This document shows positions 1 through 10,011 of a stretch of 10,011 nucleotides of DNA, piece by piece. Origin of the DNA: a virus (lineage: Duplodnaviria > Heunggongvirae > Uroviricota > Caudoviricetes); IMG/VR virus record IMGVR_UViG_2802429253_000016, positions 1-10,011 of that record; one strand, written 5' to 3'. The translations under genes and the position numbers were made by a program. The notes beneath the pieces were generated by a model, which did not search any database, was not told the origin of the DNA, and saw nothing but the letters and a program-made list of their open reading frames with translations. Each line of letters begins with the position of its first letter. Within the stretch, counting starts at the first letter, position 1.

Positions 1-582
1 TTAAACTCTGCGCTGAAATTTCTTTTTTTCATTGGAGCACCTGTGTTGTTCTGAGGTGAGCATATCACCTCTGTTCAGGTGGCCAAATTCAGTGTGCCAC
101 TTCAGATTGAACGCAGCAGCAAGACGGCTGGCGGTATAGTTAATCCCCTCGTTGCGTGCTTCCGCACGTACTTCAGCCAGGAAAGCATCGGTGGCTGGGG
201 TTTGCGGCATCCTTCCGTCTATTGCGCAGATATACGCATCAGATAGTTCATCCTGCTCGCCATCAAACACGTAGCAACTCTGTACGATAAATTTATTCAG
301 CCCCGCATTCTCCGCCGCAAGCGCAGCAAGATTAGTCTCCAGCTCTGCAATGCGTTTGCTTTGGGCTTCCCGTTCATCCAGCAGTGCCAGCACGGTAGCC
401 GGATTGGCTGCTGCTATGAATCGCTTATTGGCGCGATTATCTGGTCCTGAGCATGATGCTATGTAGTAATTTGCGTTCAGTCCGGCATCAGCAATTACCC
501 CATAGTAATCATCAGAACACCATTCGCCAGGGGTTGCATTTTCTGCCGCCATTCGCAGTGCCTGGTAATTAATGTTGCTCAC
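1..582 (-). CDS. Phage accessory protein, tentatively ead/Ea22-like (coiled-coil middle, conserved NATPGEW and NPATVLALLD segments)
   Basis: Six-frame ORF 1..609. The preferred start is GTG at 580-582, preceded by AGGAGG (589-594) with a 6-nt spacer; the ATG at 609 has no SD. Stop TAA at 1-3. Family assignment is from memory and unverified. Confidence 0.55.
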   Translation of the reverse strand: MSNINYQALRMAAENATPGEWCSDDYYGVIADAGLNANYYIASCSGPDNRANKRFIAAANPATVLALLDEREAQSKRIAELETNLAALAAENAGLNKFIVQSCYVFDGEQDELSDAYICAIDGRMPQTPATDAFLAEVRAEARNEGINYTASRLAAAFNLKWHTEFGHLNRGDMLTSEQHRCSNEKKKFQRRV

Positions 583-874
583 TGGTTGCCTCCTGAAAAA
601 TAACTGCATGCCCCAGCTTCTCCGCCAGTGCCAGTTCTGCCTTAGCGCCTGCTGACCGCTGCCAGCCTTTCAGCATGTAAATCGCATCCACACAACGAAT
701 CATTGCCATGCAAATATCCATGTAGTGTGGCTGTGTCAGTCCGTCCGGAAGTACTGCCGGACTTAAGACGGTATGCCCTTCCCGTTTCAGTTCCTCTTCC
801 GCCTTGTGGAACGCCTCACGGTTGAAATTTTTATACCCGGTCATCGGACCAGCGATATAAACCCTCACCCTCAC
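569..874 (-). CDS. DUF4406-like / nucleoside 2-deoxyribosyltransferase-like small protein (101 aa)
   Basis: ORF with GTG start at 872-874 overlapping the upstream stop (GTGA), AGGAGG at 883-888. N-terminal YIAGPMTG motif and a GW-x-S-x-GA segment are typical of the DUF4406/deoxyribosyltransferase-like fold. Assignment from memory. Confidence 0.6.
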   Translation of the reverse strand: MRVRVYIAGPMTGYKNFNREAFHKAEEELKREGHTVLSPAVLPDGLTQPHYMDICMAMIRCVDAIYMLKGWQRSAGAKAELALAEKLGHAVIFQEATSEQH

Positions 875-1287
875 GCCATCACCTCCTGAAAATTACCCTG
901 ATAAAACGCCAGCACACGCTGCATAACCTTGCTTTTCCGGCACTCGCGACAGATTATGTTCTGACGTCTGTCGTAGCGGCGTATCTCTCCATCTGGTAAT
1001 GAATAAATCAGGTCAGGATCGCTCTTTTTCTTCACCGCCGCTTTCGACATCTTTTCGATGGCTTTTATCCAGTCCTTACGCGCCTGCGCTGAAGGGAATA
1101 TTCCATACCCTGAACCATATACAACACCACTGGCTACCAGCTCTTTCGTCAGAACTTCTATCAGATGTCTCGTCGCCCCAATTTCATTTTCCAGTTGTTT
1201 ACGCGTTTTCCGACCATCTCTGCGTACCAGTTCCACAATGCGCGCCTTCACTTCTTCCCGCTGTTCGGAAGTAAAAACTTTTGCCAC
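871..1287 (-). CDS. Hypothetical phage protein (138 aa), basic, possible N-terminal winged-helix and a C-terminal CxxC
   Basis: ORF starting with GTG (1285-1287) 4 nt after AGGAGG (1292-1297). It is co-oriented and tightly packed with the replication gene; no family recognised. Confidence 0.55.
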   Translation of the reverse strand: MAKVFTSEQREEVKARIVELVRRDGRKTRKQLENEIGATRHLIEVLTKELVASGVVYGSGYGIFPSAQARKDWIKAIEKMSKAAVKKKSDPDLIYSLPDGEIRRYDRRQNIICRECRKSKVMQRVLAFYQGNFQEVMA

Positions 1288-1327
1288 AAGTCCTCCTGAA
1301 AATTACCTCATGATCTGAAATAAACAC

Positions 1328-2275
1328 TTACCCCCTGAAGCCCGGCGGAATTTCGGTATCCGGTTCAGAAATGTGATTCACGCAACGCTGTACAGGCGAA
1401 CGCCCCAGACGAATAACCAGCTCATCCCATTTTTCGCGAAGCTTTGACGGGCTCATGACGTTTTTTACCCAGAATGGATCCCGCTGTACCCGACCAAACA
1501 TTTCGCAAATTTGTCTGTGAGTTCTGCCATCCAGCATCCGCATTGTGCGCACATCATTGGCCCATGCAGTCCAGTTGGGTTCTTTCGGTCGCATGATTTC
1601 GCCATCATCGCTGGCAGCCTGCTCGTAAAGACTCACGATTCGTCCCCAGATCCACTGCGCACACGCTAAATCTTCCTGGCTACCCCACTGGCGTTTTTTC
1701 GCACTGAACACAACCGCGTCAGGGTGTCGGGTTAAAAAATCCTGTTCAGCCGTCTGCGAGTCCGGTTGCGAAGCTTCCGGACGAAAAGATCTTTTATCTG
1801 ACGGATCAGGTTTTAATACTGACGGATCGGGGCCAACCATCGCCCCCCTATCCGGCTGTTTTTTATCAATGGTTGATCCATCAAAATTTGAGGGGTCAAC
1901 CGTTGAGGGGGCAATATTTGACGGGTCATTTTTTGCCTGGCTAATTTTTCTTTTCGGTTTATATGCCTCACGCGCCGCCGCTGCTGCTGCTTCTAGTTTT
2001 TCCACATTAAGACGGTAGATATTGCTTACATTACGCCCACCGACCTTACGTTCCTCCTTCGTCAGCCAGCCGTTCTTTTCCAGTTCCGCTATCGCAGCTT
2101 TAACCGTTGATTCACTCTTTGCCCCAATCTGACGACGAATGGTCTCCACTGCAGGCCATGACACACCTTCGTCATTGCTGTAATCTGCAAGGCGAGCCAT
2201 TACTGCCACCCTGGATAAGATCATGCCGGTGAAGGCGCACCCTTCCCAGACAAGACCATGAAGCTTGCTGCTCAT
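1328..2275 (-). CDS. Replication initiation protein: N-terminal winged-helix domain, iteron-encoded linker, C-terminal DnaT-like (primosomal protein I-like) domain
   Basis: 315-aa ORF with ATG at 2275 and GGAG SD. The C-terminus ...VNHISEPDTEIPPGFRG matches the DnaT C-terminal signature as recalled. The internal iteron cluster plus AT-rich tract is the same arrangement as ori inside lambda O. The N-terminal wHTH resembles phage replication proteins. Confidence 0.85.
   Translation of the reverse strand: MSSKLHGLVWEGCAFTGMILSRVAVMARLADYSNDEGVSWPAVETIRRQIGAKSESTVKAAIAELEKNGWLTKEERKVGGRNVSNIYRLNVEKLEAAAAAAREAYKPKRKISQAKNDPSNIAPSTVDPSNFDGSTIDKKQPDRGAMVGPDPSVLKPDPSDKRSFRPEASQPDSQTAEQDFLTRHPDAVVFSAKKRQWGSQEDLACAQWIWGRIVSLYEQAASDDGEIMRPKEPNWTAWANDVRTMRMLDGRTHRQICEMFGRVQRDPFWVKNVMSPSKLREKWDELVIRLGRSPVQRCVNHISEPDTEIPPGFRG
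1796..1966. repeat. Origin-like iteron cluster (TGACGGATC-type 9-mers) followed by an AT-rich tract, embedded in the initiator gene
   Basis: Direct copies TGACGGATC (1799-1807, 1820-1828), TGAGGGGTC (1889-1897), TGAGGGGGC (1904-1912), TGACGGGTC (1919-1927), with 15-bp phasing for the last three, plus an inverted copy (1875-1883, gatccatca). Followed by ttttttgcctggctaatttttcttttcggtttatat (1928-1964). They encode the repeated DPS motifs in the protein linker. Confidence 0.7.
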
Positions 2276-2298
2276 AAAAAACTCCGAACACCGTGCTT

Positions 2299-2724
2299 TT
2301 AGTGCATCACCAGGGCATTTCCCGCCGGACCACCACGATTCATCTGATTGAAACCAGCGATCGCCACTGCGACAAAATCATCAGCGTCTCTCACCAGTCG
2401 TTCCCGCGTCTCCACCAGCTCCCGAAAATAGGCTGAACTGTGGCTGCGCATTCGGGCCACCAGCAGAGGTGGCATTGCTTTTTCGATCGCTGGTAACAAC
2501 GCCTGAATTTTTTTAACCGCATCAGGGGTGTCTTTCTCCACCCAGCGGAAAATCTTCTGAGTATTGCGAGCCAGGGCTTCTGGGTGTGAATCGTCGTACA
2601 GTTCCGGAAACGTCATACCCAGTTCAAAATAAGCCCGGGTTATTTCAGCTGCCGGAACTTTTTCTCCGTCCGGATGCGCCCAGGCATTCATCGCCATGCG
2701 GATGTGCTCATGCTTGATTTTCAT
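2299..2724 (-). CDS. YdaT-like protein (CII-type regulator analogue), 141 aa
   Basis: ORF immediately downstream of the cro-like gene with a 4-nt ATGA start/stop overlap at 2721-2724, the position occupied by cII in lambda and by ydaT in Rac-type prophages. Family call from memory. Confidence 0.65.
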   Translation of the reverse strand: MKIKHEHIRMAMNAWAHPDGEKVPAAEITRAYFELGMTFPELYDDSHPEALARNTQKIFRWVEKDTPDAVKKIQALLPAIEKAMPPLLVARMRSHSSAYFRELVETRERLVRDADDFVAVAIAGFNQMNRGGPAGNALVMH

Positions 2725-2948
2725 GAATCACTCTTCCTTTCGCTCTGAGTGGTATCCTTCTTTTTGTAAAGCTCTGGGTTCAAAGATAATTTTCCCTTGG
2801 AGTATGCAGCAGCTTCCGCAGCTCTCCCTTTCGGAACTATTTCACCGGGGCGCTTACGCCACATGTAAATAGCTTCGCGGGTTATCCCATAAAAATCAGC
2901 GACCCTCTGAACAGAGCCAAAAAACTGAACAAGTTCATCAACTCGCAT
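2721..2948 (-). CDS. Cro/DicC/YdaS-like small HTH regulator (75 aa)
   Basis: First gene of the leftward operon, divergent from the repressor. SD AGGAGG (2954-2959) 5 nt before ATG at 2948. Small, basic, HTH-like N-terminus. Confidence 0.75.
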   Translation of the reverse strand: MRVDELVQFFGSVQRVADFYGITREAIYMWRKRPGEIVPKGRAAEAAAYSKGKLSLNPELYKKKDTTQSERKSDS

Positions 2949-3044
2949 TTCACCCTCCTAAAATCTAAGTATTTTTAGATTACAGGATAATTTTTTTTAG
3001 GTCAATGCGATCTAAAATAATTTATATTCAACTCGCGGGAGAAA
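2949..3044. promoter_or_regulatory. Divergent immunity control region (oR-like) with 18-bp palindromic operators and pR/pRM-type promoters
   Basis: Operator ATCTAAGTATTTTTAGAT (2963-2980, perfect 6-6-6 palindrome) and ATCTAAAATAATTTATAT (3010-3027). On the minus strand TTGACC (3005-3000), a 17-nt spacer and TAATCT (2982-2977) form a candidate pR overlapping the first operator. TATATT at 3023-3028 is a candidate pRM -10. Confidence 0.6.
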
Positions 3045-3692
3045 ATGATGGAAAGCCTTGGCATCAGGCTTAAGAAACTCAGAAAAGATAAGGGACTCAC
3101 CCAAGTAGAACTGGGTAAGCTTTCAGGCGTGACTGGGGTTACTATAGGGTACTGGGAGAAAGATCTAAACGAACCCGGCAGCAAAGCTCTAAGTAAGTTA
3201 GCCCAAGCATTAGGAACTACTGAGTCCTATCTCCTGTATGGAGTATCGTCTCCTGAACTATCTTTTGTGCAGAGCAATCCAGGCACCAAGATCCCCTACT
3301 TTTCGTGGGGTGACGCGATTTCTTTCCTAATCTTAGAAGGAGAGAAAACAATGGGAAATGTCGATAGGATCACCACATTCTTTGATGTAGTGGAAGGTGA
3401 TTTTGCCGTTTCAATGCCTGATGACACTATGCATAACCCCTCAGGGTCGCCAAGTATCCCAGTTGGTGCCACTGTGATCCTAAGACCAGGAGAAAGTTAT
3501 AAAAATGGCAGTATCGTCGCTGTAATAGTTCCAGATCCTCTTACAAATGAACCGTCTATGACTATAAAAAAATTAGTTATTGATGGAAAACTTGTGTATT
3601 TAAGCCCTCTCAATCCGCGCTATCAATCATCCTTGCTTACGCCAGAGTGTAAAATTGTTGCCGTAGCAAAAGGTGTACAGTTCAACCTATAA
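3045..3692 (+). CDS. CI-type phage repressor: N-terminal XRE-family HTH plus C-terminal S24 (LexA-like) autopeptidase domain
   Basis: 215-aa ORF. N-terminus has an HTH (LTQVELGKLSGVTGVTIGYWE). C-terminus has VSM (Ser nucleophile context) and TIKKLVIDGKLVYLSPLNP, aligning with lambda CI GNSM and FKKLIRDSGQVFLQPLNP (Ser/Lys dyad). The second ATG at 3048 has better SD spacing (GGGAG 3037-3041). Confidence 0.9.
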   Translation: MMESLGIRLKKLRKDKGLTQVELGKLSGVTGVTIGYWEKDLNEPGSKALSKLAQALGTTESYLLYGVSSPELSFVQSNPGTKIPYFSWGDAISFLILEGEKTMGNVDRITTFFDVVEGDFAVSMPDDTMHNPSGSPSIPVGATVILRPGESYKNGSIVAVIVPDPLTNEPSMTIKKLVIDGKLVYLSPLNPRYQSSLLTPECKIVAVAKGVQFNL

Positions 3693-3713
3693 CCCTGCCA
3701 TGTTCTTGAACTT

Positions 3714-3740
3714 AAGGTCGGTTATGCCGACCTTTTTTTT
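3714..3740 (+). terminator. Rho-independent terminator downstream of the repressor gene
   Basis: Stem AAGGTCGG (3714-3721), loop TTATG, CCGACCTT (3727-3734), followed by TTTTTT (3735-3740). Confidence 0.75.
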
Positions 3741-3759
3741 AAATTAATTTAGATTCCTC

Positions 3760-3788
3760 TTGACTATAAAACTAAATACTTTTAGATT
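3760..3788 (+). promoter_or_regulatory. pL-like promoter with overlapping operator (oL-like)
   Basis: TTGACT (3760-3765), 17-nt spacer, TAGATT (3783-3788). Operator AACTAAATACTTTTAGAT (3770-3787) has the same 6-6-6 architecture as the oR sites. Confidence 0.5.
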
Positions 3789-3970
3789 TATTGCATGCCA
3801 ACCCATCCCGTCCCCACAGAATGCAGGGCAATACTTCGAGTTACCAGGCAGTGGTCAGGGGTTAAGTAGCCAGCCCGAGGCGTAAGAACATGACGGCAGG
3901 GTTCAACTTTAATAACTATGCAGCAGGTTTTTGTTCCGCTACCCCGGCGTTAAGGGGAAATGAGGTCAAC

Positions 3971-4126
3971 ATGGATACTATCGATCTTGGCAACAACGAA
4001 TCTCTGGTGTACGGCGTGTTTCCCAACCAGGACGGCACATTCACCGCGATGACGTATACCAAAAGCAAAACGTTTAAAACCGAAAATGGTGCCCGTCGCT
4101 GGCTGGAAAGAAACTCAGGTGAGTGA
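3971..4126 (+). CDS. ydfA: YdfA-like small protein (DUF1391), 51 aa
   Basis: Internal ATG at 3971 with GAGG (3962-3965) 5 nt upstream. The product MDTIDLGNNESLVYGVFPNQDGTFTAMTYTKSKTFKTENGARRWLERNSGE matches the Qin prophage YdfA as recalled. The longer ORF from 3890 lacks an SD. Confidence 0.75.
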   Translation: MDTIDLGNNESLVYGVFPNQDGTFTAMTYTKSKTFKTENGARRWLERNSGE

Positions 4127-4127
4127 T

Positions 4128-4256
4128 ATGGATTTCGACACAATCATGGAAAAGGCTTACGAAGAATACTTCGAAGGCCTTGCCGAAGGCGAAGAAGCTC
4201 TCAGCTTCAGTGAGTTTAAACAGGCGCTTTCCAGTTCGGCAAAATCTAACGGCTGA
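4128..4256 (+). CDS. ydfB: YdfB-like small protein, 42 aa (not in the supplied ORF track)
   Basis: ATG at 4128 two nt after the ydfA stop. It encodes MDFDTIMEKAYEEYFEGLAEGEEALSFSEFKQALSSSAKSNG, with stop TGA at 4254-4256. Length and position match Qin ydfB as recalled. Confidence 0.65.
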   Translation: MDFDTIMEKAYEEYFEGLAEGEEALSFSEFKQALSSSAKSNG

Positions 4257-4285
4257 TAAGCGAAACAGCACCGCGAGGAATCAGT

Positions 4286-4501
4286 ATGCAGAAACCAGAA
4301 CCCATCATCATCGCACCAGGCTATACCGATGATGAAATTTACGAATGGATGTGCGGGAAGATACGCGCCATTAATGACCTGAAGCAGGCTGCTGACTATA
4401 AAGAGCGCCTCTCTAAAGAACTGGCGTCAGCGGAGCAGGATATTACCACTCTGGCAAAAAGCGCGGCATTAAACGTTTCACGAGTGAATGAAAACTACTG
4501 A
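4286..4501 (+). CDS. ydfC: YdfC-like small protein, 71 aa
   Basis: ATG at 4286 with GAGGAA (4275-4280) 5 nt upstream; third gene of the dicB-type operon. Confidence 0.8.
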   Translation: MQKPEPIIIAPGYTDDEIYEWMCGKIRAINDLKQAADYKERLSKELASAEQDITTLAKSAALNVSRVNENY

Positions 4502-4516
4502 CTGATGAGGTTGACG

Positions 4517-4846
4517 ATGGAATTTAAAGATTTACCAATACCATTCCAGGAAATGGCAGCGAATATAGTTCGTTCCCAACTGGCGACTCTTGACCTGAGT
4601 ACCGTAGAAAAAGAAACCATCGATAATATATCCGGTAACGTGCGTCGCGCCTTTATCGGGTTGTACGAAGAGAAGCAACTCTCTGATAACCAGGATTTGC
4701 ATGAAAAATACTTCCTGGAATTAATGAACATCATTGATAAGGGGTTTGGCTTGTTAATGAAAAAGAAAGGGATTCGAATAGAACCCCTTGAAAATTACTT
4801 TGCAACAAAAAGCATTAATTCTTTTGATTCAAAACAAGAGAATTAA
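4517..4846 (+). CDS. Hypothetical protein (109 aa) in an AT-rich insertion; function unknown
   Basis: ATG at 4517 with GAGG (4507-4510) and a 6-nt spacer (the ORF track starts at 4505). Markedly AT-rich relative to flanking DNA. Its 3' end overlaps the convergent ORF by 32 nt. Confidence 0.5.
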   Translation: MEFKDLPIPFQEMAANIVRSQLATLDLSTVEKETIDNISGNVRRAFIGLYEEKQLSDNQDLHEKYFLELMNIIDKGFGLLMKKKGIRIEPLENYFATKSINSFDSKQEN

Positions 4847-5090
4847 TAACAGATTTAACATGCTCTTTCTCATGATTGAAGCTCTCATGATTGAAAGCGC
4901 CGGGTTGAAGCGAGTCGATATAATCAACAAGACTCTGTCGTACGACTTCATTTTTATCCATAACAGATGCAAGAAATGAAATTGCTAAAAGAGTTATATC
5001 ACTACGCGCCGCAGCATGCTGCAATGCTTTATCAAAATTATTAATCTGGCGTATCAGGGAGTTAATGATTTCATTATTTTCAGTCGACAT
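4815..5090 (-). CDS. Hypothetical protein (91 aa), antisense-oriented within the pL operon; function unknown
   Basis: ATG at 5088-5090 preceded by AGGAGGG (5096-5102) with a 5-nt spacer; this RBS context (AGGAGGGTGAAATG) is identical to that of the cro-like gene. The longer ORF to 5168 has no SD. AT-rich. Confidence 0.5.
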   Translation of the reverse strand: MSTENNEIINSLIRQINNFDKALQHAAARSDITLLAISFLASVMDKNEVVRQSLVDYIDSLQPGAFNHESFNHEKEHVKSVINSLVLNQKN

Positions 5091-5421
5091 TTCACCCTCC
5101 TGAGGGTTGGTGATTAAGGAGTTCTCCACGGGTGAGGTGGAGTGCGTGCGCCGGACACGGGTGAGCATCCGGCACTGACAGTTTACTGAAAGGATATATC
5201 CCTGAAAAGTCAGGGCATAACGCGAAAGCGCACGGCGAAGTTCTTCTGTCTATACGGTGTCGTTAAATTTAATTCGACCGTGCGCTTCCGGTTGTGGCAC
5301 TCCGCGAAATGGCGCGGCGGTAAGTATGGCGGGGTTATTCCTTCCCCGTTGAGGACACCGGGTTGTCAGGTTGACCATACGCTTAAGTGACACCCCCGCT
5401 GCAACGCCCTCTGTTATCAAT

Positions 5422-5477
5422 TTTCTGGTGACGTTTGGCGGCATCTGTTTGCCCATGAACTGATGCCCGCCCTTTTT
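5422..5477 (+). ncRNA. dicF: DicF-like small regulatory RNA with intrinsic terminator
   Basis: The 5' segment TTTCTGGTGACGTTTGGCGG matches the DicF 5' end as recalled. Hairpin GGCGGCATC (5437-5445) / GATGCCCGCC (5462-5471), then CTTTTT. It sits between ydfC and dicB, as in the Qin dicB operon. Confidence 0.7.
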
Positions 5478-5479
5478 AA

Positions 5480-5631
5480 AGTGAATTTTGTGATGCGGTG
5501 AATGCGGCTCAGCGCACGCGGAACAGTTAAAACCAAAAACAGTGTTATGGGTGGATTCTCTGTATCCGGCGTTAATTGTTAACTGGTTAACGTCACCTGG
5601 AGGCACCAGGCACCGCATCACAAAATTCATT
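5480..5631 (+). promoter_or_regulatory. Long-range RNA stem (about 20 bp) enclosing about 110 nt between DicF and the dicB RBS; candidate RNase III processing or translational control structure
   Basis: 5482-5500 tgaattttgtgatgcggtg is the exact reverse complement of 5611-5629 caccgcatcacaaaattca, extendable by a G-U and an A-U pair. The 3' arm ends 5 nt before the dicB SD (GAGGA, 5635-5639). Confidence 0.5.
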
Positions 5632-5646
5632 GTTGAGGACGCGATA

Positions 5647-5835
5647 ATGGAAACGTTATTACCAAACGTTAATACGTCTGAAGGTTGTTTTGAAATTGGT
5701 GTCAGAATCAGTAACTCTGCATTTACTGAAGATGCCATTAACAAGAGAAAACACGAACGGGAGTTATTAAATAAAATATGCATTCTTTCAATGCTGGCAC
5801 GTTTACGCCCGATGCAAAAAGGATGCTGGCAATGA
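5647..5835 (+). CDS. dicB: DicB cell-division inhibitor (62 aa)
   Basis: ATG at 5647 with GAGGA 7 nt upstream. The product METLLPNVNTSEGCFEIGV...NKICILSMLARLRPMQKGCWQ matches DicB as recalled. The ORF-track N-terminal extension from 5542 is non-coding leader. Confidence 0.85.
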   Translation: METLLPNVNTSEGCFEIGVRISNSAFTEDAINKRKHERELLNKICILSMLARLRPMQKGCWQ

Positions 5836-6035
5836 ATACAGCAATTGCTCTCACTCTGACAGTTTTTCTTAATACGGGCGAGCCTGTTGACCTGGTTATT
5901 GACATTTACGGTTCAATGAAAGAATGCACGGCTGCCGCAGCGGAACAGAAAATTCCCGGTAACTGTTATCCGGTTGATAAAGTTATTCATATGGACAATA
6001 ACGAAATCCCGGCAGGACTTAAAACAGCACCGTAA
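5832..6035 (+). CDS. ydfD: YdfD-like small protein (67 aa; prophage lysis-associated protein in K-12)
   Basis: ATG at 5832 overlaps the dicB stop (ATGA). The product MNTAIALTLTVFLNTGEPVDLVIDIYGSMKEC... matches YdfD as recalled. Confidence 0.7.
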   Translation: MNTAIALTLTVFLNTGEPVDLVIDIYGSMKECTAAAAEQKIPGNCYPVDKVIHMDNNEIPAGLKTAP

Positions 6036-6115
6036 TTAATATCCGGTTTCATTTTTATATGCCAGCAATGGCAGGGATTTGTTCACCCTTAAATCTGTAA
6101 TGAGGTTAAAACAAA

Positions 6116-8590
6116 ATGAGTAAAGTCTTTATTTGCGCCGCCATTCCGGACGAACAGGCAACAGCAGAAGGCGCTAAACCTGTGGCCACTGCCATTGAAG
6201 CAGGCGACGAACGCCGGGCAAGAGCCAAATTTAGCTGGTTATTTCTGGAACAATACCCGGAAACTCAGGACTGTGCTTATAAATTTCTTGTCTGCGAGGA
6301 TAAACCCGGCATGGCCCGCCCTGCTCTCGATTCCTGGGATTCCGAATATATGCAGGAAAACCGCTGGAATGAGGAGTCGGCTTCCTTTGTTCCGGTCGAC
6401 CCTGAACCGGATACAGAAACTGTTAACTTTAATCAGTTATCTGACGACAAGCGGGCTGCTGTCCTTGTCAGGTTCGGTACACATGAAAACATCACCGTGG
6501 ATATGGTCATCAATGCAAGCGGGCTTCTCGGCGATGACGAGATGACGACTTTTGATGGACACCTCACTGAAGCAGTTATCCGGACCAGAGAAATTAACGC
6601 CATGTATCCTGAGCGTCAGACTGAGTACATCAACGATGCCAGACGTGATTTAAAACCAACAGCCAAATGGCCCGATGTTCAGGCGTATTTTCTCGAACGT
6701 AAAAAACGCATGGAAAAGGAGCGCAAAGAAGGTGGAGCATATAATTCCGTCGTCGATCTTGCCCGCGCCAGAGTCAACCGGCAAGGCACTGAAAACTCTG
6801 CAGGAAAAACTGACTCCGTAACTGCTGTCATTCGTCGCGAATACAAGCAGACATGGAAAACACTGGATGGCGAACTGGCCTACGCTCTCTGGCCTGGTGA
6901 TGTGGATGCCGGAAACGTTAACGGCAGCATCCATCGCTGGGCAAAAAATGAAGTTATCGACAACGACCGCGAAGACTGGAAGCGTATCTCGGCATCAATG
7001 CGCAAACAGCCTGATGCCCTTCGCTACGACCGCCAGACTATTTTTGGCCTTGTCCGTGAACGTCCGATCGACATTCACAAAGACCCTGTGGCACTGAACA
7101 AATACATTACTGAATACCTGACTACAAAGGGCGTGTTTGAAGATGAAGGAAGAAATCAGAGCGCAACTGATACTCTCTCGTCGCCAGTACCAGAAACTGA
7201 TGCAGTGGAAACGGCAATTCCGGACAACGAAAAAACCGAATGCAAAGTGGAAGTCGAACCATCTGTAGAGCGTGAGGGGCCATTCTACTTCCTCTTCACC
7301 GACAAGGATGGCGAAAAATACGGTCGCGCAAACAAACTTTCTGGTCTGAATAAGGCGCTGGCTGCCGGGGCTACTGAAATCACGAAAGAAGAATATTTTG
7401 CCCGCAAAAACGGCACATACTCAGGTTCACAACAAAATACTGGTGCATCTGACACGACCGCACAACCAGAGCCGGTAAAAGTTACCGCTGACGAAGTAAA
7501 CAAAATTATGCAGGCAGTCAGCCAGCCTGACGCCAATCAGTTGCTTGCTGCCTCTCGCGGAGAATTTGTTGCAGGGATTAGCGACCCGAATGATCCGAAA
7601 TGGGTGAAGGGGATTGAAACCCGCGATTCTGTGTACCAGAACCAGCAAGAAACGGAACAGAACGACCAGAAAGCGGAACAAAACAGCCAAAATGCGTTAC
7701 AAAACGAGCCAGAAACGAAACAATCCGAACCAGTAGCGCAACAAGAACCAGAAAAAACCTGCACCGCCTGCGGTCAGAGCGGTGGCGGCAACTGCCCTGA
7801 TTGTGGCGCGGTGATGGGCAACGCAACATATCAGGAAACATTCGATGAAGAGAATCAGGTTGAAGTTCAGGAAAATGATCCGGAGGAAATGGAAGGCGCT
7901 GAACATCCACACAAGGGGGACACTAGCGGCGCTCAGGACCACGCCAGCGATAGTGAAACTGGTGAGGCGGCAGATCCCTTAATTAATGTGAATGGTCATC
8001 ATAAAAGCACATCCACCAGTAGAGTGTGGTACCACCTGATGATCGACCTTGAAACGATGGGTAAAAAAAGTAATGCCCCCATCGTGGTTATTGGTGCTGT
8101 GTTCTTCGATCCGCAGACCGGGGAAATCGGGCCAACATTTTATATCGTTATCAGCCTGGTTGACGCTATGGACACGGGTGCTGTACCTGATGGTTCCACC
8201 ATCGAATGGTGGCTTGCTCAGTCCAGCGAAGCCAGATCTGCAATTTTAGTTGATCAGGTAAAACTGGTTGACGCTCTTATTCAATTTCGGGAATTCATCA
8301 ATGAGTACTCGAATGAAAAATTCGTTCAGGTATGGGGCAATGGTGCAACTTTCGACAACACTATTTTACGAACCTCGTACGAACGCCTGAACATCCCCTG
8401 CCCGTGGCGTTACTACAACGATCGCGATGTACGTACAATCGTTGAACTGGGAAAAACTATCGACTTCGATGCCAGAACAGTTATTCCATTTGAAGGCGTG
8501 CGCCACCATGCGCTGGATGATGCCCGTCACCAGGCGAAATACGTTTCAGCAATCTGGCAAAAACTGATCCCGAATCAGGCTGATTTTTAA
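6116..8590 (+). CDS. Large RecE/YdfE-like protein (824 aa) with a Q/E-rich low-complexity linker, a CxxC-x10-CxxC knuckle and a C-terminal DEDDh (DnaQ-like) 3'-5' exonuclease domain
   Basis: Single uninterrupted ORF. C-terminal motifs: Exo I MIDLETMG, Exo II WGNGATFDNTIL, Exo III RHHALDDARHQAKY. The N-terminus MSKVFICAAIPDE... resembles Qin YdfE, and the middle LLAASRGEF...CTACGQSGGGNCPDCGAVMG segment resembles RecE, both as recalled. It sits where exo/recE sits in lambdoid phages. Confidence 0.85.
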   Translation: MSKVFICAAIPDEQATAEGAKPVATAIEAGDERRARAKFSWLFLEQYPETQDCAYKFLVCEDKPGMARPALDSWDSEYMQENRWNEESASFVPVDPEPDTETVNFNQLSDDKRAAVLVRFGTHENITVDMVINASGLLGDDEMTTFDGHLTEAVIRTREINAMYPERQTEYINDARRDLKPTAKWPDVQAYFLERKKRMEKERKEGGAYNSVVDLARARVNRQGTENSAGKTDSVTAVIRREYKQTWKTLDGELAYALWPGDVDAGNVNGSIHRWAKNEVIDNDREDWKRISASMRKQPDALRYDRQTIFGLVRERPIDIHKDPVALNKYITEYLTTKGVFEDEGRNQSATDTLSSPVPETDAVETAIPDNEKTECKVEVEPSVEREGPFYFLFTDKDGEKYGRANKLSGLNKALAAGATEITKEEYFARKNGTYSGSQQNTGASDTTAQPEPVKVTADEVNKIMQAVSQPDANQLLAASRGEFVAGISDPNDPKWVKGIETRDSVYQNQQETEQNDQKAEQNSQNALQNEPETKQSEPVAQQEPEKTCTACGQSGGGNCPDCGAVMGNATYQETFDEENQVEVQENDPEEMEGAEHPHKGDTSGAQDHASDSETGEAADPLINVNGHHKSTSTSRVWYHLMIDLETMGKKSNAPIVVIGAVFFDPQTGEIGPTFYIVISLVDAMDTGAVPDGSTIEWWLAQSSEARSAILVDQVKLVDALIQFREFINEYSNEKFVQVWGNGATFDNTILRTSYERLNIPCPWRYYNDRDVRTIVELGKTIDFDARTVIPFEGVRHHALDDARHQAKYVSAIWQKLIPNQADF

Positions 8591-8654
8591 TGTTCAACCC
8601 CGGTCGTCGCCCACCAGCTATAGTGGCGGCGACCATGATTAGCGAACGACGCTC

Positions 8655-8903
8655 ATGGCAAGACTTATTCTGCTCACTGAGTGGGCAAAAGAGGAATTCA
8701 GTGAACCGGTCCCTACTCCGGGTACGTTAAGTAAATACGCTAAAGCCGGAATGATATTTCCTCTCCCCAAAAAAGTAGGAAGGCACTGGCGAGTGGATCC
8801 ACGCGCTCGCTTTGTCGGAATGGTAAACAAGCCTGAGGTGATCGCCACAGATCACCCTGCTTTGAAGAGGATACTGGAAGATGGCGCGCCCGCGAAAATA
8901 TAA
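8655..8903 (+). CDS. xis: Excisionase (Xis-like, 82 aa)
   Basis: Small basic protein immediately upstream of, and overlapping, int by 23 nt. LILLTEWAKEE...IFPLPKKVGRHWRV parallels lambda Xis LTLQEWNARQ...IFPPPVKDGREY. Confidence 0.8.
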   Translation: MARLILLTEWAKEEFSEPVPTPGTLSKYAKAGMIFPLPKKVGRHWRVDPRARFVGMVNKPEVIATDHPALKRILEDGAPAKI

Positions 8904-10011
8904 AACCGATGTTCCGGGTTTATCTCCGTATTTTGACAAAAGAAATAACAAAGTTTACTGGCGTTACAGGCATCCCATCACAGGTAAAAATCATGGACTC
9001 GGCAGTATTGACCAGAAACTGGCGGAAACCATTGCAGCAGAAGCGAACAGCCGTCTTGCCAGACAAAAAATGGAGCAAATGCTCAGTCTGCAGGAGAAAA
9101 TTATTAGTGATACCGGCGGCGCATCAACCGTTTCCATTTTTCTGAATAATTACAGAAAAATTCAACAGGAAAGATATGAGAACGGAGAAATCAAGCTCAG
9201 CACGCTGAAACAAAAAGCGGCTCCTCTCAGGGTGTTTGATGAACGTTTTGGAGCCAGGCCGCTAGATGCCATAACCGTAAAAGATGTGGTATCGGTGCTG
9301 GAAGAATACAAGGCAAAGGGACATAACAGAATGGGACAAATTTTCAGGAAGGTATTGATCGATGTTTTCCGGGAGGCTCAACAAACGGGTGATGTCCCGC
9401 CAGGCTTTAACCCGGCTGAATCGGCAAAAAAACCGCAAGTGCGGATATCAAGACAGCGACTGACTTTTGATGAGTGGATGATGATTTATAACGCAGCGGA
9501 AAAGGATGGTTACTTTTTACAGCGCGGCATGCTGCTGGCACTGATGACGGGCCAGCGTCTTTCGGATATTTGCAAAATGCAGTTTTCGGATATCCGGGAT
9601 GGTTACCTTCATGTCGAACAGCAAAAAACAGGAGCCCGGATAGCCATTCCTCTGGCTCTGCGTTGCGACAAATTAAATCTTACCCTGGGTGACGTGGTGT
9701 CATCCTGTCGTGATTACATCCTTAGTCCGTGGTTATTGCACCATCATCACGCTAAGGGGATGGGTAAGCGCGGCGGGATGGTTAAACCAGCAACGTTAAC
9801 AGTCGCATTTAAAAAAGCCCGGGATTCTGTGGATTACAACTGGCGTGCTAATGGCACGCCACCCTCTTTCCATGAGCAAAGATCTTTATCAGAACGATTG
9901 TTCAGAGAACAGGGAATTGATACCAAAATTTTGCTGGGCCATTCGAATCAAAAAATGACCGATATTTACAACGACGCACGCGGTAAAGAGTGGAAAAAAC
10001 TGGTTGTTTGA
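8881..10011 (+). CDS. int: Lambda-family tyrosine integrase (376 aa), apparently intact
   Basis: Collinear with lambda Int. N-terminal arm-binding region (YFDKRNNKVYWRYRHPITGK), TGQRLSDI (Arg), HEQRSLSERLF (His, Arg), LLGHSNQKMTDIY (His, Tyr nucleophile), and a C-terminal GKEWKK tail. Stop TGA at 10009-10011. Confidence 0.95.
   Translation: MARPRKYKTDVPGLSPYFDKRNNKVYWRYRHPITGKNHGLGSIDQKLAETIAAEANSRLARQKMEQMLSLQEKIISDTGGASTVSIFLNNYRKIQQERYENGEIKLSTLKQKAAPLRVFDERFGARPLDAITVKDVVSVLEEYKAKGHNRMGQIFRKVLIDVFREAQQTGDVPPGFNPAESAKKPQVRISRQRLTFDEWMMIYNAAEKDGYFLQRGMLLALMTGQRLSDICKMQFSDIRDGYLHVEQQKTGARIAIPLALRCDKLNLTLGDVVSSCRDYILSPWLLHHHHAKGMGKRGGMVKPATLTVAFKKARDSVDYNWRANGTPPSFHEQRSLSERLFREQGIDTKILLGHSNQKMTDIYNDARGKEWKKLVV

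Follow-up and report, generated by a model that had tools for sequence, protein, structure and literature searches.

How does an origin-binding initiator obtain a replicative helicase when no helicase loader is encoded next to it? This question is raised by a replication gene of a lambdoid prophage of Escherichia, contained in IMG/VR virus record IMGVR_UViG_2802429253_000016, of which positions 1 to 10,011 (referred to as the window throughout) were analysed. The window, 10 kb in length, covers the immunity, replication and integration region of the prophage, and DNA related to it was found in 4185 of 5426 complete E. coli genomes. The gene in question (positions 1328-2275, minus strand) is an intact open reading frame (ORF) encoding a replication initiator of the lambda O type with 315 amino acids (aa), which ends in a peptide that matches the C-terminus of the host primosomal protein DnaT. 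As set out below, the initiator C-terminus is a swappable module within one initiator family and, to judge from the genes that accompany its different forms, its extreme end behaves like an address label that designates the partner in helicase loading.

A DnaT-type tail on a lambda-O-type initiator

The ORF terminates in ...VNHISEPDTEIPPGFRG, and its last residues (aa 293-315; positions 1331-1399, minus strand) form a tail, ...QRCVNHISEPDTEIPPGFRG, which contains a DnaT-type short linear motif; the tail peptide reads RCVNHISEPDTEIPPGFRG. BLASTP aligns residues 296-315 with residues 160-179 of E. coli K-12 DnaT, with 14 of 20 positions identical and 18 of 20 positive (pairwise E 1e-7), and both proteins end with the matching stretch. 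The tail is disordered in both: an AlphaFold2 (AF2) model of the initiator, built on 24 homologues, assigns a predicted local distance difference test score (pLDDT) of ~40 to residues 293-315, directly after a confident helical domain, and the DnaT tail was found to be flexible by nuclear magnetic resonance (PMC5778457). In a search of 177,635 PDB sequences, the top three matches were the DnaT chains 2ru8, 6aep and 9zbt (E 0.013-0.035), aligned via residues 295-315 only. Likewise, the NCBIfam DnaT model (NF002770) aligns 296-315 with 160-179 only (16.7 bits against a cutoff of 201), and hhalign of the initiator and DnaT profiles covers the last 16-17 residues only (E 1.6e-4 to 3e-4; 300-315 only in the full-length run). 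Among ~108 DnaT orthologues the tail is near-invariant, (K/R)RD(V/I/L)N..SEPD..IPPGFRG, a constancy that would be typical of a short linear binding motif, and phage and host tails together follow the consensus ..[DY]xx[IVL]PxGFRG at the C-terminus. The tail-coding DNA of the initiator and of dnaT is identical at 41 of 63 positions, with many synonymous differences, which argues against a recent transfer from dnaT and for conservation at the protein level.

Outside the tail, the two proteins have no recognizable similarity. Pfam reports no match of the initiator to PF17948, the three-helix bundle of DnaT that binds single-stranded DNA (ssDNA), and our own hmmsearch with a hidden Markov model (HMM) of the bundle gave E 1.3; as a positive control, a protein of phage SPN1S scored 1.5e-34 with this HMM and 3.9e-18 with PF17948. 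Compared by hhalign without their tails, the bodies of initiator and DnaT yielded E 0.74 and a probability of 0.06%, in profiles of such low diversity (Neff ~2) that very remote DnaT homology could escape. No similarity to the N-terminal oligomerisation domain of DnaT was revealed by hhalign or by BLASTP, which returned no other significant segment, and no homology to the PriB-binding acidic linker of DnaT was detected, although the linker of the initiator is acidic and rich in Pro and Ser. With Pfam, NCBIfam, the PDB sequence search, the DnaT-bundle HMM and the tail-less hhalign all negative, DnaT homology beyond the tail was rejected; what the initiator has in common with DnaT is, by these comparisons, a flexible 20-residue tail and nothing else. 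Unlike DnaT, the window protein is an origin-binding initiator and not a fork-restart adaptor. The initial annotation, which had recognized the C-terminal signature of DnaT in the last residues of the initiator, is thus borne out for the last 20 residues; its wider notion of mimicry of DnaT stands for this flexible tail and fails for the ssDNA-binding bundle and the N-terminal domain.

The body of the protein is that of a lambdoid initiator. It matches phrog_391 ('replication initiation O-like') with E 4.3e-113, residues 1-315 corresponding to profile positions 1-298 of 298. The N-terminal domain (aa 1-105; positions 1961-2275, minus strand) is modelled by AF2 as helices and a beta hairpin (pLDDT 78-93), has winged helices of the MarR/PadR type as its Foldseek matches in the PDB, and contains HTH_36 (aa 25-71, E 5e-8, Pfam) and not the Phage_rep_O domain of lambda O itself. 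It is followed by a disordered linker rich in Pro, Ser and Asp (aa 110-174, pLDDT <50; positions 1754-1948, minus strand), in which 'DPS' peptide repeats are kept across the family, and by an all-helical C-terminal domain (aa 176-290, pLDDT 86-91; positions 1406-1750, minus strand), which is homologous to the C-terminal part of lambda O (37.5% identity over aa 161-288, E 3e-19, tblastn). Initiators of the same cluster (P0001, 99% identical) are present in other E. coli prophages.

The linker-coding DNA harbours five iteron-like repeats of the pattern TGASGGDKC (positions 1799-1927, plus strand), with copies at 1799, 1820, 1889, 1904 and 1919, all in one orientation. Five matches compare with 0.84 expected, a number reached in none of 200 shuffles, and the pattern search found no copy elsewhere in the window; a general repeat finder detected just two of the five, and the degenerate pattern search was used for all. 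The four ori iterons of lambda likewise sit inside the O gene, and by this analogy the repeats probably represent an origin of replication within the initiator gene, where the winged-helix domain would bind the initiator's own coding sequence. We regard the gene as the origin-binding initiator of a lambdoid prophage. It resembles the lambda O-P module in its place in the operon after cro and cII, in a two-domain protein with a disordered linker, in the iteron-like repeats inside the gene, in the C-terminal domain, and in the ren-like gene that follows the module. It differs from lambda in its N-terminal domain type, in its DnaT-type tail, where lambda O ends in ..LDLTNTDWIYGVDL, and in having no P gene.

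Tail exchange and the association of tail type with loader type

Members of the initiator family share a conserved sequence as far as ...SPSKLREKWDEL..L, past which the C-terminus takes alternative forms: the strict DnaT form, a relaxed form (..VDYSQIPAGFRG, ..YSLPENSGFRS), a third form (..HWNSPEAWENTL / ..EWNTPEGWRDVL), and a fourth (..LDFSNTNWIDGIEDD..), to which lambda O itself belongs. Every tail form occurs on both N-terminal sequence groups, which indicates that tails have been exchanged repeatedly. The form of the tail is strictly associated with the type of loader. In a sample of this family with one genome per species, all 12 loci with lambda-like tails (..HWNSPEAWENTL or ..LDFSNTNWIDGIE) have a lambda-P gene next, which starts at the initiator stop or at most ~70 nucleotides (nt) from it and overlaps the initiator gene in most of the 12; with GFRG-type tails (..IPxGFRG), a lambda-P gene is next in none of 16 loci (Fisher p 3e-8, uncorrected for phylogeny). 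Individually fetched loci agree with this pattern. Behind a GFRG tail, there is either the gene for a DnaC orthologue, starting 2-12 nt past the stop, or no loader. The former arrangement is found in Rac (ydaU-ydaV), Gifsy-2, 75/02 Stx, SPN3UB, two Klebsiella phages and the loci L118 and L121, and the phage DnaC-like proteins have full-length identities of 47-51% to host DnaC. The extent of the exchanged segment can be seen in a pair of loci, one with a lambda-type tail and P (L008) and one with a GFRG tail and no P (L011), whose C-terminal domains are near-identical up to ...KLREKWDELSL and whose flanking genes are the same: the DNA homology ends ~100 nt ahead of the stop codon, which points to the tail plus the loader gene as the unit of exchange.

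In this initiator family, the P-linked tail types ..LDLTNTDWIYGVDL and ..HWNSPEAWENTL always have the lambda-P gene next (lambda itself, L135, 687-1586; L010, 5001-5984; L108, L008, L104-L107 and L116-L125). Tails of both types are candidate P-docking peptides, a role that is not assigned to them in the literature examined.

The GFRG tail is not confined to one type of protein. When the tail alone served as tblastn query, 46 phage records (phages of Escherichia, Salmonella, Klebsiella and Shigella) were found to encode a replication protein with this peptide at its C-terminus, and at least seven different bodies end in it: DnaT, the window protein with its HTH_36 and O-type C-terminal domains, LLS O (HTH_36 and Phg_2220_C, ending in ..DTKIPEGFRG), Gifsy-2 O (with a Phage_rep_O N-terminal domain), Rac YdaU and the 75/02-Stx protein (both without a Pfam domain), and the SPN1S protein. 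The presence of the same tail on several unrelated phage initiator bodies argues that the match to DnaT is not due to chance. A library-wide phmmer search with the last 33 residues gave only 19 matches, most of them partial sequences from the same family; with so short a query, architectures could not be surveyed. In the SPN1S protein, a YdaU-like N-terminus is joined to a true DnaT domain (63% identical to residues 86-153 of E. coli DnaT) and the tail, and proteins of this type indicate that the whole C-terminal half of DnaT circulates in phages. In Epsilon15-like phages (SPN1S, L005, 2748-3563; Klebsiella ST11-OXA245phi3.2, L138, 1805-2575), a YdaU-like part, PF17948 and the tail occur together with no loader gene next, and the version of ST11-OXA245phi3.2 carries four extra residues past GFRG (..PPGFRGGPAP).

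Two kinds of published module with a GFRG tail can be compared with that of the window. In the LLS O-only module (PMC12315714), the O homologue also stands as a single gene without helicase or loader, with Phg_2220_C as its C-terminal domain in contrast to the lambda-O-like domain of the window protein. The modules of Rac (YdaU-YdaV), Gifsy-1/2 (O-DnaC) and 75/02-Stx ('primosomal protein I'-DnaC) differ from the window in having a DnaC paralogue immediately downstream and other initiator bodies, although the 75/02-Stx protein has an O-like C-terminal domain, too (E 1e-10).

The phages in which we encountered GFRG tails were all phages of Enterobacterales. An O-like protein of Vibrio phage K75 (L143, 2581-3510) has the same C-terminal domain and an acidic C-terminal peptide, ..DFSDDSEGDPQFRF, with no obvious loader downstream. 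This acidic end resembles SSB's C-terminal tail and may be another address label; the Vibrio host of K75 presumably uses DciA rather than DnaC.

The host genes dnaT-dnaC have the same arrangement as the phage pairs of a GFRG initiator and a DnaC-like gene, and many relatives of the window initiator resemble DnaT in that the tail-bearing gene lies directly upstream of a dnaC-type gene. Gene order is the same in dnaT-dnaC (L001, 1239-2518) and in phage pairs (L019, 6001-7701; L007, 1228-2769), 2-7 nt separate the ..FRG stop from the next start, and the DnaC N-termini begin with MKN. As a corollary, the dnaT-dnaC operon and the phage pairs would be consistent with a common, possibly phage, origin.

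In the window, the initiator is of the loader-less kind. With E. coli DnaB and DnaC, three phage DnaC-like proteins and three lambda-P proteins as tblastn queries, no homologue of P, DnaC or DnaB was found in the window, nor in phage HannyBb, whose 45-kb genome is complete, carries the same module with an identical tail and served as a whole-genome comparison, the window being only part of its prophage. The gene that follows, 40 nt past the initiator stop, encodes the DUF977 protein, and no cognate loader gene lies immediately downstream; the spacer (positions 1288-1327, minus strand) is where a DnaC-like gene, usually with DUF1627 after it, is located in other prophages. The DUF977 protein (138 aa; positions 871-1287, minus strand; Pfam E 1.5e-33; PHROG 'Ren-like exclusion protein', E 1e-41) occupies the position of ren in lambda. 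It has DUF977 as its only Pfam match and no AAA+ or Phage_lambda_P (PF06992) domain, and neither HMMs nor tblastn matched it with DnaC or P. Its gene is found downstream of the initiator with or without a DnaC-like gene, and many of the other loader-less modules lack it (LLS, SfII, Klebsiella, Pantoea and SPN1S). Further downstream lie a DUF4406 gene (nucleoside 2-deoxyribosyltransferase-like; positions 569-874, minus strand; Pfam E 1.4e-37; also assigned by PHROG) and an Ead/Ea22-like gene (listed ORF at positions 1-609, minus strand, with its 3' end unresolved inside the window; Pfam Ead_Ea22, E 8e-20). The initial annotation had stated that no loader of the P or DnaC type follows the initiator and that none of these downstream genes resembles one, and both statements are confirmed; its suggestion of the 138-aa protein as an accessory replication factor does not find support, as this protein is DUF977/Ren-like and not specific to loader-less modules.

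For 74 IMG/VR loci, the initiator shows at least 90% identity to that of the window; a DnaC-like gene, starting ~10 nt past the initiator stop, is present in 48 of them and missing from 26, and 23 of these 26 carry DUF977 at +44 nt, exactly the junction of the window. The sequence of the 40-nt spacer is the same in phage mEp460, and isolated phages of the loader-less form include mEp460, HannyBb, Tritos, SfII and LLS. In other E. coli prophages, the P0001 initiator is followed by DnaC-like, DUF1627 and DUF977 genes. From these gene arrangements, a phage-encoded loader appears to be dispensable for the initiator type of the window. In most modules that contain a loader, a DUF1627 gene with HTH-like N-terminal matches separates the DnaC-like gene from DUF977 (L019, 7724-8494; L035-L037); three IMG/VR contigs keep the DUF1627 gene without a DnaC-like gene.

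Candidate partners of the tail

The genomic association of tails and loaders suggests, with what we judge to be a slightly better than even chance, that the tail docks complexes of a DnaC-type loader with DnaB and that loader-less phages thus use host DnaC. The origin-bound initiator would present its tail and recruit the replicative helicase, the tail docking the DnaC-type loader within DnaB6-DnaC6; the contact would be with DnaC and not with DnaB, and physical binding would underlie the association of tail and loader. Phages with a DnaC paralogue directly downstream would use their own paralogue, and in O-only phages of the window type host DnaC would be recruited directly to the origin-bound initiator, so that neither lambda P nor a loader of their own is needed. 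The C-terminal part of lambda O interacts with P, as known from lambda genetics and biochemistry, and the joint travel of lambda-type tails with P is consistent with this interaction. As a corollary, the DnaT tail might do the same job in replication restart. In this context, the variant DnaC1331 (A84Y), which specifically blocks the PriA/PriB/DnaT pathway in vitro (PMC11087952), points to a DnaC surface that is used by a restart protein, and A84 is conserved in all four phage DnaC-like proteins examined, within the stretch GQxxAL(S/T)xA(K/R). Joined together, these ideas lead to a broader proposal, which we put somewhat below an even chance: that the DnaT tail (..SEPDxxIPPGFRG) is the element by which PriA-PriB-DnaT engages DnaB6-DnaC6, that dnaT-dnaC is a domesticated phage initiator-loader cassette, that O-only lambdoid phages hijack host DnaC with the same peptide, and that the last 15-25 residues of lambda-O-type initiators are interchangeable labels for P or DnaC.

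Several points weigh against a tail that docks DnaC. A physical interaction of DnaT with DnaC has never been documented (PMC5778457; PMC11087952), and according to a 2024 study of DnaC, no contact of DnaC with PriA, PriB or DnaT had been demonstrated (PMC11087952). The authors of a 2026 structure of the preprimosome by cryo-electron microscopy favour the N-terminal domain of DnaT as the recruiter of DnaB/DnaC; in their words, recruitment by the restart preprimosome 'remains unknown', and the DnaT tail is not a subject of their text (PMC13377028). The only role that experiments have assigned to the last 18 residues of DnaT is trimerisation, DnaT 1-161 being reportedly dimeric (PMC5778457), besides a modest effect of the tail on ssDNA affinity (PMC4132743). 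Moreover, the association of tail and loader could stem from genetic linkage of neighbouring DNA and not from binding, and the loci counted are not phylogenetically independent. Phage 75/02 Stx encodes a DnaC-like protein of its own, yet its tail is the same as in the window, so that the tail sequence cannot separate phages with their own loader from those relying on the host loader; a comparison of whether loader-less tails are closer to the host DnaT tail than loader-carrying ones was dropped on the same grounds. Finally, growth of LLS is aided by RecBCD (PMC12315714), which raises the possibility that loader-less phages also lean on recombination-dependent replication of the PriA type.

The properties described for the DnaT tail could alternatively mean that the peptide serves only for self-association or ssDNA affinity, and that the helicase is recruited otherwise, e.g., by DnaA or transcriptional activation. 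DnaT 1-161 reportedly forms a dimer rather than a trimer, and the Kd for dT30 is 9.9 uM for DnaT 84-179 as compared to 27 uM for DnaT 84-153 (PMC4132743). However, a generic oligomerisation element would have no reason to exclude lambda P or to swap together with the loader gene, and loader-less phages would be left without any helicase-recruiting element; we consider this explanation unlikely. A shade less probable still is that the tail binds DnaB itself and that DnaC comes only as the normal partner of DnaB. Direct binding of DnaB would give the same genomic pattern as docking of DnaC, and DnaA recruits DnaB-DnaC mainly via DnaB (PMC13377028). Yet lambda P also works through DnaB, and GFRG tails never occur with P; in host and phages alike, the gene with the tail is tightly linked to one of the dnaC type; and although DnaB is universal, the GFRG tails were observed solely in Enterobacterales phages, with a different tail in Vibrio relatives that have the same C-terminal domain.

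That the phage enlists the host PriA/PriB/DnaT restart primosome was the mechanism put forward in the initial annotation; the tail would then recruit PriA and/or PriB, and the phage origin would be served by the restart primosome including host DnaT. The tail indeed comes from a primosome protein, and its D..IP.GF motif loosely resembles the C-terminal DDDIPF peptide of SSB, a PriA binder. In addition, the O-only phage LLS needs RecBCD/Chi for good growth (PMC12315714), and D-loops are substrates of PriA. In the preprimosome structure, however, DnaT docks PriA by the three-helix bundle of its C-terminal domain and PriB by its acidic linker (PMC13377028), and the initiator lacks the DnaT bundle according to Pfam, hhalign and HMM searches. 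The idea is weak because the initiator has none of the parts by which DnaT contacts PriA and PriB, and it leaves unexplained why the tail gene so often shares an operon with the gene for a DnaC paralogue but never with P. With PriA/PriB-contacting elements unrecognizable, and with a DnaC-type loader and not PriA/PriB as the genomic partner of the tail, recruitment of this primosome seems distinctly improbable. That the loader-less module is a decayed prophage which lost its DnaC-like gene and the ability to replicate autonomously, as might be imagined from the loader next to P0001 initiators elsewhere and in 48 of 74 close relatives, is hardly credible and was rejected because the isolated phages mEp460 and HannyBb have the exact initiator-DUF977 junction, which recurs in 23 IMG/VR contigs; O-only modules are moreover present in 34 of 314 lambdoid phages including plaque-forming LLS (PMC12315714), and the initiator ORF is intact. 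Docking of a DnaC-type loader, that of the host where the phage encodes none, is the reading we retain.

The surrounding region and implications for helicase loading

The minus strand of the window constitutes the rightward operon, with the order cro-like, YdaT/CII-like, initiator, DUF977, DUF4406 and Ead/Ea22. Its first gene encodes a Cro-like regulator (positions 2721-2948; Pfam P22_Cro, E 1.2e-9), and the YdaT/CII-like gene (positions 2299-2724; Pfam YdaT_toxin; PHROG 'CII-like transcriptional activator', E 1e-45) lies directly upstream of the initiator. On the plus strand, a gene for a CI-type repressor (HTH_3 and Peptidase_S24, Pfam; positions 3045-3692), divergent from cro, is accompanied by several small phage ORFs and by genes for an 824-aa exonuclease, an excisionase and an integrase. 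The exonuclease (positions 6116-8590) has a C-terminal Rv2179c-like 3'-5' exonuclease domain and a long acidic middle part rich in Gln and Glu; it matches phrog_2082 over its full length, and an orthologue in related loci carries Pfam YdfE_N and YdfE_C. Two minus-strand ORFs (117 aa, positions 4815-5168; 177 aa, positions 5250-5783) run antisense to early-left genes of the plus strand, are without a PHROG match and could be morons or spurious ORFs. Toxin-antitoxin pairs of the ParE/PaaA2 or ParE/RelB type adjoin the repressor gene in several related prophages (L019-L022, 4276-4754; L008, 1355-1889) and not in the window.

Parts of this picture are already known. Some initiator genes of this kind have been labelled 'primosomal protein I' by annotation pipelines, and O-only modules were described in 34 of 314 lambdoid phages of Enterobacteriales, their replication being 'not yet understood' (Genome Res 2025, PMC12315714); in that study, the replication module of LLS consists of an O homologue only, and DnaT and the tail are unmentioned. 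A fusion of a DnaT motif with HTH_36 is known from DopC of the DopC-DopE pair (Brezellec et al. 2017, PMC5509034), which resembles the window initiator in its HTH_36 N-terminus and its 'DnaT C-terminal motif', DnaT-derived sequence being joined to a lambda-O-like N-terminal domain in this case, too. Unlike the window initiator, DopC is chromosomal and domesticated, is paired with the lambda-P-like DopE and has no iterons. In the literature searched, we came across no report that DnaT and these initiators have just the flexible tail in common, and none of a covariation of tail type with loader type as one exchangeable unit.

The window thus presents a lambda-O-type initiator with a different, probably helicase-recruiting address, which bears directly on how DnaT works. 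Brezellec et al. are said to have proposed in 2016 that dnaC was acquired from phages, and the suggested phage origin of dnaT-dnaC would extend this published idea. The covariation of tail and loader points to a specific 20-residue element, to mutants and to partner candidates. By way of this one peptide, two processes may become testable: the handover from the E. coli restart primosome to DnaB-DnaC, and the replication of lambdoid phages that encode only O.

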